Shown: in pieces, positions 5,168-37,441 of the stretch | How positions within the stretch are numbered: position 1 is the stretch's first letter | Layout of the letters: each line of letters starts with the position of its first letter | Source of the DNA: an uncultured Hormoscilla sp. | GTDB lineage: Bacteria > Cyanobacteriota > Cyanobacteriia > Cyanobacteriales > Desertifilaceae | DNA length: 64,000 bases | Assembly (NCBI GenBank): GCA_963921275.4 | Contig: OZ001293.3 | Location: 6,496,001-6,560,000, forward strand | Direction of reading: 5' to 3' | The notes under the pieces: generated by a model | Told to the model about the DNA's origin: nothing | Database searches by the model: none | The model's input: the letters and a program-made list of their open reading frames with translations, nothing else | Program-made: the position numbers and the translations under genes

Positions 5168-5392
5168 ATGAACTATTAAGTCTTATCAGCTTAACAGTTT
5201 GTAACTCGGTTAGCTCCATCTCTGATATTACGGGAAAATTTCGGGCTTGTTACAGTTTTTTACAGAGCTATTGAATATAATTTATTATAAGTTCTGCTTA
5301 TTATATCCTGATTGCTTATATCTGTTTGCGATGAGCAGGACATGATAAGAGTAAAGGTTGTGGTTGAGGTTGTGTTACCGCCGGTGAATAAC

Positions 5393-6418
5393 ATGCATGG
5401 GACCGTGACTCTCAGAGTTGGGATAGTTGGGACTGGTTATGCTGCCAAGATGCGGGCGCAAACCTTGCAAGCCGATCCACGCTCAGATTTGGTTACTGTT
5501 GCCGGTCACTCTCTGGAGAAAACCCAGGAATTCGCTCTTAACTATGGGGCTGAGGCGTTAAGCAACTGGCAGGATCTGGTAAATCGTTCCGATTTGGATC
5601 TAGCGTGCGTCTGTACAGTGAATCGAGATCATGGTGTCATAACTCGTGCGGCACTCAACAGCGGTAAGCATGTGGTGGTAGAATATCCCCTTTGCTTAGA
5701 TGCAACCGAAGCTGAAGAACTGATCGCTTTGGCTGCTGCTGGTGGTAAGCTGCTGCATGTGGAGCATATTGAACTTCTCGGTGGCTTGCATCAGGCTTTT
5801 AAGCAGTCATTACCGGCAATTGGTGACCCCTTTTATCTTCGCTACGCCACGATCGTCCCTAAAAGACCGGTGTCCCCTGGGATCGCTACTCGCACTACCC
5901 AGAGGACACCGCCAGCTCATTCGGGCTGGAAATATAACCGAAAGCTGTTCGGTTTTCCCCTGACTGCTGCTCTCTCCCGTCTGCACCGACTTACGGATGC
6001 CTTGGGTACAGTCGCTACCGTCAGCTGTCAAGTCCGATATTGGCCAGTAAAAGAAGATGACTATAGCGCTTGTCTATGTACTGCGCAGTTGCGGTTTGCT
6101 AATGGGGCGATCGCCGACGTGCTCTATGGTAAAGGAGAAACCTTCTGGCAGGCTGAACGGAAACTAGAAGTTCATGGAGACCAAGGAACGCTGATCTTCG
6201 ATGGCGGCGATCGGGGTTTTCTGGTGCGAGGAGAGGAAACGACACCCATAGAAGTTGCCAGTCGCCAGGGTCTATTTGCTAAAGATACTGGCATGGTGTT
6301 AGATCATTTAATCGCAGGAACGCCATTATACTTGTTTCCGGAGGCTAGTTTATACAGTCTGAAAATTGCCAATGCCGCTCAGCTCTCAGCCGCTACAGGA
6401 CAGATTGTCAATTGTTAA
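5393..6418 (+). CDS. bvdR: Biliverdin reductase (Gfo/Idh/MocA family)
   Basis: RVGIVGTGYAA, GKHVVVEYP, LLHVEHIELLGG and FGFPL.AALSR match cyanobacterial BvdR as recalled; start uncertain (5312-5393). Confidence 0.85.
   Translation: MHGTVTLRVGIVGTGYAAKMRAQTLQADPRSDLVTVAGHSLEKTQEFALNYGAEALSNWQDLVNRSDLDLACVCTVNRDHGVITRAALNSGKHVVVEYPLCLDATEAEELIALAAAGGKLLHVEHIELLGGLHQAFKQSLPAIGDPFYLRYATIVPKRPVSPGIATRTTQRTPPAHSGWKYNRKLFGFPLTAALSRLHRLTDALGTVATVSCQVRYWPVKEDDYSACLCTAQLRFANGAIADVLYGKGETFWQAERKLEVHGDQGTLIFDGGDRGFLVRGEETTPIEVASRQGLFAKDTGMVLDHLIAGTPLYLFPEASLYSLKIANAAQLSAATGQIVNC
5868..5911 (+). repeat. 44-bp hairpin element inside bvdR (copy 1)
   Basis: CGGTGTCCCCTGGG-ATCGCTACTCGCACTA-CCCAGAGGACACCG; related copy at 36869-36912. 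Confidence 0.8.
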
Positions 6419-6473: not shown

Positions 6474-6494
6474 GGTGGGCAATGCCCACCCTAC
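6474..6494. repeat. REP-like palindrome GGTGGGCAATGCCCACCCTAC
   Basis: Related copies near 9192-9242 (three in tandem), 36574, 36624, 38399 and 59898. Confidence 0.75.
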
Positions 6495-21040: not shown

Positions 21041-22874
21041 ATGACAGAGTTTCCAGCAGAATATGATAGTCCTTGGAAGGCGGGACTAGAACAATATTTC
21101 CCGCAGTTTGTCGAATATTGCTTTCCAGAAATCTACGCAGATATAGATTGGAGTCGCGGTTACGAGTCCATGGACAAAGAGTTTGAAGAAGTGGTGCGAG
21201 ACGCGGAATTGGGCAAACGGCTGGCTGATGGATGGGGTCGAGCCGGGAATCGCTTCCCGACCCTCCCTTTCGGAACCGGACTTGCGATTTTCACCGCATC
21301 CGGCTACTGGGTACTAGGCCCTTTTCATAGGTAGACTTAATAGGAATTACTTCCGTTAGCCCTTGCCGCCTGTCTTTTCTTCCCTTTCCTGGTTTAGCGA
21401 GTGGTTGTTCTGATAACCGTTAGTATCACCATTTTCAAGTCAGTTTTACCAGTTATCCATACCTTATCCTCCACTTGCGTTTCGGATTAGTTCCGTGGCT
21501 TTTTAGGATTACTCATTCCAGCAGCTTCCTAGTATCACCGACCCACGTCAGCGCTGGCTACCCAGCATCATCTACATTACTGTAGATGTTATCCCAGGAA
21601 TTACCCCGGGCATTCGCTTCTTGGGCCATCCCTCCCCCCGTGGCTTGCGCTTAACATCTAACTTGTCCTGATGGACAGCACACGAGAGGTTACTTCGTTC
21701 CCTAACAACATTTCGCGATACCTTTAGGTCCACACTATACCCCGAGAGCTATTTGAGTACTATATTAGCCAGAGTCTAAAACTAATACTAGCTACCATTT
21801 CCTTTTTAGGCCAGCGCATATAGCCTTATTTCGCTGGTTCCTTATAACGAGGCTTGCACATGTTTGCCTGCTCTAACCTTGGATATCTTTCCTAGCGGCG
21901 TCACCGGCTTAGGCTGCCAGTTATCCTACATTTGAGTCCTCGCTTAGCACCACGATGATGTCGCTTCGTAGCACCGAGGACCGGTGTCACCCCCGTACCT
22001 GGGAGGAGGGGAATTTAACCCCCATGCGGTCAGAGTTCCCGGCTAATGAAACCGGGCTAGCGTTCCGTGTTTGACCACGTTAGGCTAGAACGAATCGCAC
22101 AAAATCTTTAAAGTTTGGCTGCTGGATGGAACCGAGACTTGGATCCTCATCCACGTTGAAGTTCAGAGCCAGTATGAGTCAAATTTTGAAAGGCGGATAT
22201 ACGTTTATAACTATCGGTCTTTCGATCGCTTCCGCAAACCGGTGATTAGTTTGGTAGTATTGGCAGATGAGCGGCAAAATTGGCGACCATCATCTTACGG
22301 ATACAAATTTGACGGTTTTCGACTCCATTTAAGATTTCCGATCGTCAAGCTGTTGGACTACGAGCGGAATTGGGAGGCTTTAGAGCAAAGTCAAAGTGAA
22401 AATCCCTTCGCCGTAATGATCATGGCCCATCTCAAAACCAAAGCTACCAAAGACGATATGGAACAGCGGCGGCAGTGGAAATGGACTCTCGTTCGCGGAC
22501 TGTACTCCCGAGGCTATAATAGGAATGACATCTTGGAGCTTTTCCGGTTAATCGATTGGATGATGACTCTACCAGAAGAGTTGCAAACTGCCTTTGAACA
22601 ACAAGTCGAACGTTATCAGGAGGAGAACAAAATGCCTTTACTGAGTCAGATTGAAACACGGGCCATGCGAAGAGGAACGGAACTGGGGATCCAACAGGGG
22701 GTCCAACAGGGGGTATTACGGAGTGGCCGCAAATCAGTGCTGCGGGTCTTGGAAGTGCGGTTCCAGGAAGTGCCAGAGGCGATCGCAGATACTATTAATA
22801 GCATTGGCGACGTGGACTTTTTGGATCGGCTTCACATTCAAGCTGTTGTGATTGTCACCGTCGCCTGTGACTAA
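21041..22874 (+). pseudogene. Rpn/PD-(D/E)xK-like cyanobacterial protein interrupted by antisense intron B; 3' end replaced by a deletion junction
   Basis: YDSPWK...GKRLAD | KIFKVWLLDG...IHVEVQSQ is in frame after removing 21230-22100; NPFAVMIMAHLKT motif. Confidence 0.88.
21230..22100 (-). mobile_element. ORF-less group II intron B (871 nt)
   Basis: GTGCGATTCGTT start; canonical DV AGCCGGATGCGGTGAAAATCGCAAGTCCGGTT; DVI with bulged A; precise removal restores the host frame. Confidence 0.93.
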
Positions 22875-27170: not shown

Positions 27171-28041
27171 GTGCGATTCGTTCTAGCCTAACGTGGTCAA
27201 ACACGGAACGCTAGCCCGGTTTCATTAGCCGGGAACTCTGACCGCATGGGGGTTAAATTCCCCTCCCCCCAGGTACGGGGGTGACACCGGTCCTCGGTGC
27301 TACGAAGCGACATCATCGTGGTGCTAAGCGAGGACTCAAATGTAGGATAACTGGCAGCCTAAGCCGGTGACGCCGCTAGGAAAGATATCCAAGGTTAGAG
27401 CAGGCAAACATGTGCAAGCCTCGTTATAAGGAACCAGCGAAATAAGGCTATATGCGCTGGCCTAAAAAGGAAATGGTAGCTAGTATTAGTTTTAGACTCT
27501 GGCTAATATAGTACTCAAATAGCTCCCGGGGTATAGTGTGGACCTAAAGGTATCGCGAAATGTTGTTAGGGAACGAAGTAACCTCTCGTGTGCTGTCCAT
27601 CAGGATAAGTTAGATGTTAAGCGCAAGCCACGGGGGGAGGGATGGCCCAAGAAGCGAATGCCCGGGGTAATTCCTGGGATAACATCTACAGTAATGTAGA
27701 TGATGCTGGGTAGCCAGCGCTGACGTGGGTCGGTGATACTAGGAAGCTGCTGGAATGAGTAATCCTAAAAAGCCACGGAACTAATCCGAAACGCAAGTGG
27801 AGGATAAGGTATGGATAACTGGTAAAACTGACTTGAAAATGGTGATACTAACGGTTATCAGAACAACCACTCGCTAAACCAGGAAAGGGAAGAAAAGACA
27901 GGCGGCAAGGGCTAACGGAAGTAATTCCTATTAAGTCTACCTATGAAAAAGGCCTAGTACCCAGTAGCCGGATGCGGTGAAAATCGCAAGTCCGGTTCCT
28001 CAAGGGAGGGTCGGGAAGCGATTCCCGGCTCGACCCCATCC
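27171..28041 (+). mobile_element. ORF-less group II intron C (871 nt), near-identical inverted copy of B
   Basis: GTGCGATTCGTT...canonical DV...CGACCCCATCC; only about 6 differences from B found by eye. Confidence 0.93.
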
Positions 28042-36523: not shown

Positions 36524-36598
36524 AGTAGTCATGCTATACTTTTGATATCAGAATCGGACTACCGGTAGCGGATGGTGGGCACCGCCCACCCTACGGCT
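36447..36598 (+). repeat. About 150-bp direct repeat, copy 1 (herA 3' end plus downstream); copy 2 at 38271-38424
   Basis: Both start GCGATCGGGC.GCAGCAGAAGCACCTTTAGC and end in a REP. Confidence 0.85.
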
Positions 36599-36711: not shown

Positions 36712-36990
36712 TTGATTATGAACATCACCCTCCAACCAGAACAGGAAAAGTTTGTCCAGTCACAGCTCACAACAGGTAAGTATAAGACGGTAGATGACAT
36801 CATAGCTGAAGCCCTGAGATTGCTGGAAGCAAGAAATCATCAAACACAACTGCTGACAGAAATACATCCCGTGTCTCCTGGGAGCGCTAATCGCACTACC
36901 CAGGAGACACGGCAGCGGCATTGGAAGCCGCCCCATACAGTGCCTGATAGCGTCACATTGCTAAGGAAAATGAGAGGGTACGATGATTAA
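36712..36990 (+). CDS. ParD/CopG-like antitoxin carrying the in-frame 44-bp hairpin insertion
   Basis: MNITLQPEQEKFVQSQLTTGKY...EALRLL. Confidence 0.75.
   Translation: MIMNITLQPEQEKFVQSQLTTGKYKTVDDIIAEALRLLEARNHQTQLLTEIHPVSPGSANRTTQETRQRHWKPPHTVPDSVTLLRKMRGYDD
36869..36912 (+). repeat. 44-bp hairpin element (copy 2)
   Basis: CCGTGTCTCCTGGG-AGCGCTAATCGCACTA-CCCAGGAGACACGG, perfect 14-bp stem. Confidence 0.85.
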
Positions 36991-37441
36991 TATTCCTGTT
37001 TTTGAGTGCGTTTTGGATGCTAATGTTGCTATCAAGCTCTATATAAATTAGCCTTTGTCAGATAAGGCGATCGCATTAATATACCTGCTGCAAGCAGACA
37101 AACCTGCCAAATTTTACGTCCCATTATTATTCTATGCCGAATGCGCAAACGTTCTGTGGCAGTATGTTCGCCTGGCGTCATATACTGCTTCTGAAGCTAG
37201 ACAGAGCTTAGAAAACCTCAAGCAACTGGAATTGGAGGTTGTCGATACTTTCATTTTGACAACAGAGGCTTTGGAAATTGCCATGACACATGGAATAACG
37301 GTTTATGATGCTTGCTACGTGGAGCTAGCTAACCGTTTAAGCATACCTTTAGTCACTGCGGATAAAAAACTTGTGAATGCTCTAGCATCTACCTCCTATC
37401 CTATTCAGTCCCTAGAAACCCTCGTTATTCCAGCAAGTTAG
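36983..37441 (+). pseudogene. vapC: VapC/PIN toxin with in-frame TAG at 37049
   Basis: MINIPVFECVLDANVAIK...*PLSDKA...YDACYVELA...LVTAD. Confidence 0.85.

Follow-up and report, generated by a model that had tools for sequence, protein, structure and literature searches.

Two 44-nt hairpins, one within bvdR and one within a gene for a ParD-like antitoxin, were found to belong to a family of hundreds of copies in the genome of a Hormoscilla species. In agreement with the original prediction of a structured micro-mobile family that adds peptide loops to proteins, the stems of these hairpins covary and orthologous sites without the hairpin are found in relatives. The family is very probably a mobile, motif-directed element that is filtered by selection, and its copy number, covarying stem, empty sites, net insertion lengths, overwritten junction bases, one-sided target motif and reading-frame skew could each be read directly from the genomes. 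In its fuller form, the proposal is that of a non-coding, non-autonomous hairpin (44–47 nt) that may be moved in trans as single-stranded DNA by an HUH nuclease, a composite reading in which our confidence falls slightly short of even. The choice of HUH as the enzyme is itself tentative and seems to us somewhat likelier to be wrong than right.

Two hairpin insertions in the window and their family

The window is a stretch of 64,000 nt, and the features of its two insertion sites are collected in Table 1. BvdR was identified by its match to PDB 5b3t (E = 2e-92), and the smaller host gene by a match to the Pfam family ParD_antitoxin (3.8e-6), with a PIN gene next downstream. Hairpins with a 14-bp stem and a 16-nt loop had been predicted at 5868–5911 and 36869–36912, and both the coordinates and this architecture were borne out. 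The stem itself is complete (14 of 14 pairs) in the antitoxin copy only; the bvdR copy forms 13 of the 14 pairs and has a C·A mismatch at pair 9–36. The covarying stem differences between the two copies proved real, with G–C replaced by C–G at pair 2–43 and C–G by T–A at pair 8–37, and translation of the two sites confirmed the common peptide PVSPG.A.RTTQ.T in one and the same frame. When folded as DNA, the bvdR and antitoxin copies have z-scores of −3.9 and −6.1 on the + strand and of −5.3 and −6.3 on the − strand, respectively, and none of 200 shuffles was as stable as either hairpin.

Table 1. Coordinates, within the window, of the two hairpins, their host genes and the associated target positions
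Feature	Position	Strand	Remarks
bvdR ORF (host gene 1)	5312..6418	+	True start probably some 25–30 codons in
Net 45-nt insertion in bvdR	5868..5912 (equally 5867–5911)	+	+15 aa in a loop
Hairpin copy 1	5868..5911		44 nt; 14-bp stem with one mismatch; 16-nt loop; − strand folds better
GTAG at base of inner 4-bp mini-stem	5895..5898	−	Conserved G·T wobble; 5-nt loop
Target-motif position CATT at bvdR	5918..5921	+	7–10 nt past hairpin end
ParD-like antitoxin ORF (host gene 2)	36712..36990	+	Upstream of PIN-domain gene 37055–37441
Net 45-nt insertion in antitoxin gene	36868..36912 (equally 36869–36913)	+	+15 aa
Hairpin copy 2	36869..36912		44 nt; 14/14 stem pairs
Target motif CATT at antitoxin	36919..36922	+	Pre-existing in empty allele

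At both sites, the net insertion corresponds to the hairpin plus one base, with a placement that is ambiguous by 1 nt. The approximately 15 additional residues predicted in BvdR are exactly 15 (45 nt). They are missing from 29 of 29 orthologues, distant families included, and four of these orthologues come from the same genus and share 92–93% identity; no hairpin-less orthologue retains the peptide, as the site is empty in every one of the 29. The antitoxin site is likewise empty in four of four congeners. An independent contig from another study (run X6) spans the filled bvdR allele with the hairpin in place, which shows that it is no assembly artefact, and run X11 has the empty allele. At the antitoxin site, a contig from run X8 skips exactly 45 nt, and runs X5 and X6 have no coverage of this locus.

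These observations bear on the alternative that the repeats are not mobile, and are instead either an ancient feature that was lost at some sites or the product of local duplication or misassembly. Ten filled sites are common to different species, which speaks for this alternative and also indicates that copies can be old. However, the empty sites of the BvdR outgroups refute it, different sites are filled in different congeners, and independent assemblies agree; we regard it as scarcely credible.

In an AlphaFold2 model of BvdR (25-sequence alignment, mean pLDDT of 91), only residues 159–174, in the loop that follows strand 144–154, have a pLDDT below 50. The 15-residue insert is predicted to be a disordered loop in a fold that is otherwise predicted to be intact. 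Among the orthologues of window positions 36712–37441 (L298, L300), genome G003 has an early stop in the antitoxin gene, and in genome G001 the sequence diverges right after the antitoxin gene and the PIN partner was not found there. Based on these two cases, the antitoxin/PIN pair may be weakly constrained. Near the host genes, GTAG-type REP-like palindromes are present at 6474–6494, downstream of bvdR, and at 36574–36594, upstream of the antitoxin gene; the same palindrome repeat flanks a RAYT gene in G001 (L319/L330).

As the original prediction implied, the hairpin recurs in the genome. A search that required the loop core and at least 11 of the 14 stem pairs recovered 257 copies, with 131 different left arms and 117 perfectly paired stems. 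The loop core itself has 371 matches genome-wide at no more than one mismatch, compared with 6 and 6 for two scrambled controls, and all 371 lie on the main contig. The six small contigs (C2–C7) hold none of these 371 matches, where about eight would be expected by length; one of them, C3, has a G+C content of 17.6% and may not belong to the same organism. In a covariation test of 63 distinct copies from relatives and the window, which are related to one another and in which the search pattern fixes four stem columns, 89% of the stem cells are paired, compared with 73% after shuffling and 34–49% with slid partners, and two-sided stem changes number 155, compared with 46 in shuffles. Such changes fall at 11 of the 14 stem pairs, a number that does not beat shuffles (59/500). 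The loop contains a 4-bp mini-stem, and in 140 of 166 copies the − strand reads GTAG before it (CTAC on the + strand). A mismatch in this mini-stem, C17·A27, is present in 164 of 166 copies and corresponds to a G·T wobble on the − strand, a conserved feature that points to the − strand. In addition, 14 copies show a compensatory change of G18–C26 to A–T.

The loop core is matched 40–159 times in each of four congeners, nowhere in one sister-genus genome, and once, in a single genome, among 400 other genomes of the phylum. A loop-free pattern gave one match outside the genus in 150 genomes of the order, viral contigs gave 0 matches to the hairpin, and a species-wide scan recovered at least 72 loci, all of them from Hormoscilla among the matches listed. 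Within the genomes examined, the family appears to reach high copy only in Hormoscilla, whose members are described as sponge symbionts (PMC6520454, in part).

Insertion products and a distal target motif

The products of insertion were compared with their empty counterparts for simple copies whose two flanks matched at 85% identity or more and whose gap fell between −20 and +12, drawn from the 257 copies of this genome and 195 distinct copies in relatives; nested, re-invaded and shared sites were left out. This comparison yielded 44 unique empty/filled pairs, with a net length of +45 in 29, +44 in 7 and other values in 8. The original prediction had proposed to look for a target duplication, and none that is real or fixed is present in the 44 pairs: the junction ambiguity in the 36 pairs of the +44 and +45 classes is 0–1 nt in 27, 2 nt in 7 and 4 nt in 2. 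Each of the two bases 5' of the hairpin is altered relative to the empty allele in 20 of the 29 +45 pairs, usually to TT or TG, compared with just 1–3 of 29 at positions −3 to −11. Base 45, at the other side, is altered in 13 of 40 pairs, compared with 0–5 further out. Up to 2–3 junction bases are overwritten on insertion, and many +45 events look like the replacement of 2 nt by 47. In the +44 class, 44 nt are joined through a shared C, the target base being C in seven of seven pairs, and both window copies are clean 45-nt insertions in which one C is ambiguous. Which dinucleotide lies on the left depends on the stem type (TT in the CGA type), and for this reason it is probably carried by the donor. 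Long-range co-conversion of the flanks from a parent copy was also considered but not supported; past the 2–3 junction bases, mismatches are in only slight excess, mostly in coding pairs.

Filled sites share a one-sided motif, [CGA]-A-T-[TCA], at positions 51–54, which is 7–10 nt past one hairpin end. The dinucleotide AT is present at 52–53 in 116 of 255 dereplicated sites against a background of 7% (p = 9e-64), both in this genome (69 of 158 sites) and at sites found only in relatives (47 of 97), and it already exists in 14 of 40 empty alleles (the pairs with a net length of +43 to +46). Neighbouring offsets and the mirror side are flat. Intergenic (39/95) and genic (34/71) copies both show the AT, and nested copies often lie six bases before the parent's own CATC. 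At bvdR, the CATT is missing at that position from the empty alleles of four congeners. The motif is a preference and not a requirement, as the exact AT is absent from over half of the sites. Guiding of the insertion by base pairing with the element's own arm was rejected, since neither arm position 3 and flank position 53 nor the other mirror pairs covary.

The same motif accompanies sibling hairpins of 41, 42, 53, 54, 56 and 57 nt, which share the 7-bp stem foot of the 44-mer, enclose unrelated interiors and mostly lack GTAG. In these siblings, without dereplication, AT occurs at the same offset on one side in 67 of 119, where 16 are expected, and on both sides in 4 of 119; counts by position are 71 at the offset and 5–18 at neighbouring offsets. 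The 44-mer is a member of a wider hairpin set that is defined by the stem foot and the distal motif. In siblings of 56/57 nt (C1:682784, 910859 and 5170387), each arm contains TTGACA and the centre is AT-rich and TATAAT-like; by sequence these siblings resemble a two-way portable sigma70 promoter. A 25-nt member at C1:841329 has no interior. A separate family of 15-nt mini-hairpins (180 copies, 151 after dereplication) comes right after an adjacent (Y)CCGA almost without exception. Shared machinery with this family was rejected because its 151 sites combine a strong adjacent CCGA with no distal motif, and the 15-nt hairpins probably use a different enzyme.

The junctions invite comparison with a different type of event, in which another host nuclease or recombinase, for example one with a 2-nt stagger, cuts by the motif and strand exchange or repair then takes up the hairpin, while template-switch correction, and not selection for recognition, keeps the stems perfect. 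The frequent replacement of 2 nt by 47 in the +45 class is what exchange of a 2-nt core gives, and the left dinucleotide is either that of the target or that of the element. The genome also holds an active IS607-type serine recombinase in five near-identical copies and many nuclease families, which we take to be Uma2-like. However, a 2-nt stagger does not yield the +44 class, and the conservation of the foot across unrelated interiors argues for recognition and not for mere correction. The ends of IS607 are unlike the hairpin, the motif is at the offset in only one of five IS607 insertion sites, and a serine synaptic complex needs a larger double-stranded donor than 45 bp. Taken as a whole, such an event strikes us as rather improbable. 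The five IS607-type elements (C1:50147, 195671, 1400128, 4428982 and 6146638) consist of a serine recombinase and a long TnpB-like ORF and were recently active; with ends unrelated to the hairpin, they were rejected as its source.

Reading frame of intragenic copies

Genes were called with a simple ORF model of our own (6,495 calls, 65% coding). Both window copies are intragenic, as had been predicted, but this location is not the rule for the family, in which called genes hold just 73 of the 182 simple copies. Some of these copies are in large conserved genes that presumably encode topoisomerase I and the glycyl-tRNA synthetase beta subunit, which they resemble. A test for frame bias, which the original prediction had suggested, gave a clear result: 28 of 49 copies in confident genes are in the frame of the window copies, and the frames are used in a ratio of 28:10:8:2:1 (p = 3e-10). 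Of the frames, five are largely open, and an expectation weighted by the target motif gives 5–14 copies in each. The motif was rejected as the cause of the skew, because the motif-weighted expectation stays about equal across frames. The hydrophobic fraction is lowest in the commonest frame (0.13) and highest in the two rarest (0.39 and 0.45). The net length is divisible by three in 17 of 18 coding pairs, compared with 14 of 26 non-coding pairs (Fisher p = 0.006), and intergenic copies lean to the opposite orientation (52 versus 30).

Selection on the peptide, and not insertion chemistry, is the best explanation of the shared frame. The chemistry has a +45 mode even outside genes, which selection likely sharpens and from which it likely picks the frame. 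That both window copies give the same peptide would follow from the retention by selection of in-frame copies in the least hydrophobic reading.

Candidate enzymes, related repeats and implications

In the proposed mechanism, an HUH strand-transfer nuclease (Y1, RAYT/TIRYT-like) would act in trans on the folded, single-stranded hairpin and recognise the conserved stem foot, with an interior that is interchangeable. The target would be cut 5–7 nt from the motif, and that end would be joined in a fixed register and a fixed orientation, six bases from the motif. Host repair would finish the other end and give +44, +45, or 47 nt in place of 2. Selection would afterwards retain intragenic copies that are in frame, and mostly those in the least hydrophobic frame. 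An HUH/Y1 enzyme is favoured because such enzymes work strand-specifically on folded single strands (PMC8266576, in part) and because REPs occur in frame within genes (PMC6006769 and PMC3733652, both in part). The hairpin substrate, the strand specificity, the GTAG with a mini-hairpin at the tip and the nesting in clusters all fit this assignment.

Other features fit it less well. To our knowledge, no HUH transposase chooses its site by a motif 5–10 nt away, and the known enzymes join precisely. Known HUH transposases choose the site directly at the cut, by base pairing (PMC8266576, in part). Among 43 Y1 loci in five genomes, no Y1 gene is flanked by these hairpins, and one locus has a stray copy more than 1 kb away; the intact Y1 genes of this genome carry other REP families. 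A subclass-2.1-like Y1 candidate is present here only as a fragment (C1:5108062–5108342) and occurs widely among cyanobacteria in which the search for the element found none (13 of 61 genomes). Its Pfam search returned no helix-turn-helix in the tail. In four congeners (L311:2372, L312:2372, L313:920, L321:2193 and L325:2223), a hairpin comes directly after the subclass-2.1-like Y1 gene; its 11-bp arms are fixed and its interior varies, and this hairpin was not seen beside the gene at 20 loci from other genera. The GGGGWSAS arm motif of TIRYT-associated repeats is matched by only 15 of 166 hairpin arms.

A wider search was made among the neighbours of the hairpins. None of 25 genes flanked on both sides resembles a cognate transposase when judged by eye, one being an IS630-like fragment; no enzyme family is enriched among 184 neighbours; and no transposase enclosed in a long element with these arms was found in this genome. 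A tyrosine recombinase was rejected, as this genome (96.7% complete) has no PF00589 match and all 14 control genomes have one, and IS110 was rejected on the basis of its one broken copy. The chromosome has no clear GC skew.

An RNA-based route is nearly as likely as HUH/Y1, although it too remains unlikely in our estimate. After transcription and trimming of the hairpin, the reverse transcriptase of a group II intron would copy it in trans into a nick that another nuclease makes at a constant distance from the motif. Among the mobile enzymes of this genome, only reverse transcriptases are greatly expanded (93 RVT_1 matches), along with 445 matches to group II intron domain V/VI and a 74-member family in protein clustering. 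Consistent with such a route, only one of the two junctions is variable (by 1–2 nt), wobble pairs favour the − strand (50 versus 29, p = 0.024), and between co-oriented genes the − strand is on the transcript side (52 versus 30 intergenic copies, p = 0.02). In contrast, the target profiles of the introns (strong at −1 to −6 and −9 to −13, with A at −15) are unlike that of the hairpin in either orientation, and only 1 of 257 copies lies inside the 389 delimited introns, where 13.8 are expected. The element contains no intron domain, Rfam returns no match at the bvdR or the antitoxin hairpin site, and the source of the nick is left unexplained. Direct derivation from a group II intron was rejected, given this lack of intron domains and of an IBS1/IBS2-type target consensus. 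The delimited introns make up 5.4% of the chromosome, and two of the domain V/VI matches are in the window, at 21232–21308 (−) and 27963–28039 (+).

SDR1–8 of the Nostocaceae are, like the hairpin, very small, dispersed, ORF-less and precisely inserted cyanobacterial repeats with empty orthologous sites, and the set described by Elhai et al. in 2008 reportedly measures 21–27 nt. No cognate enzyme was found for the hairpin, and SDRs, as cited in PMC4390886, PMC13756078 and PMC5861425, likewise have no known enzyme. The comparison, which is by description only, sets hairpins of 44–47 nt against the 21 nt of SDR5 (PMC13756078, in part), and a family outside the Nostocaceae, with a one-sided distal target motif, against repeats that an excerpt of PMC5861425 reports as not found outside that group. 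The insertion point of SDR5 is between bases 3 and 4 of HIP1, whereas only 1 of 29 empty sites of the +45 class is an exact HIP1. GTAG REPs and REPINs, with their RAYT (TnpAREP) enzymes, are similar in their hairpin structure, hundreds of copies, clusters, GTAG adjoining a mini-stem and occasional in-frame copies in genes (PMC3733652, PMC6006769, PMC8266576 and PMC3116915, each in part). They differ in that the GTAG of the hairpin is inside a long stem and not at its foot and is missing from most siblings, in that no flanked transposase gene was found, in the approximately 40% of simple copies that are intragenic, and in the distal motif.

Two further groups were compared. The Rickettsia RPEs, of which RPE-1 measures approximately 150 nt, are unrelated to the hairpin in sequence and phylum; the hairpin has about a third of the length of RPE-1, lacks a CGTC tag and uses several reading frames, with a skew. 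Both repeats are palindromic, enter unrelated genes in frame, add a peptide and occur in a host-associated bacterium (RPEs as cited in PMC3733652 and PMC3184786, in part). Bacterial MITEs, such as Nezha in Nostoc (PMC3184786, in part), share conserved ends, variable interiors, terminal inverted repeats and a lack of coding capacity, but span 70–300 nt compared with 25–57 nt for the hairpins, which have no fixed target duplication and for whose ends no autonomous element was found in this genome. A literature search found no description of this hairpin family, and the main text of the Hormoscilla genome papers does not mention it. The family is SDR-like and REP-like yet meets the definition of neither, with SDRs judged by their description.

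A bolder version of the proposal, which we consider doubtful, is that a single enzyme recognises a motif of four bases, cleaves at a set distance from it and inserts any hairpin with the 7-bp foot, from 25 to about 57 nt. The cargoes of that system, an equally doubtful extension, would be peptide-adding 42-/45-mers and two-way, sigma70 promoter-like 56/57-mers, inserted nearly without a scar. If true, this would be a distance-targeted class of micro-transposon distinct from REP/RAYT, MITE and SDR. It would also be a first handle on the movement of repeats of less than 50 nt, a question that has been open since the Nostoc SDRs were described; an excerpt of a 2026 paper still calls the function of SDR5 unknown (PMC13756078). 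The substrate (stem foot and folded strand), the target rule and the products at the junctions are known in enough detail for a direct assay of a short list of candidate enzymes; should the enzyme be identified, a small nuclease able to insert short hairpins almost scarlessly could be a tool. Finally, the family is a natural linker-scanning experiment, in which one 15-residue insert has been placed in many proteins and the filter on its frame and hydrophobicity can be measured.
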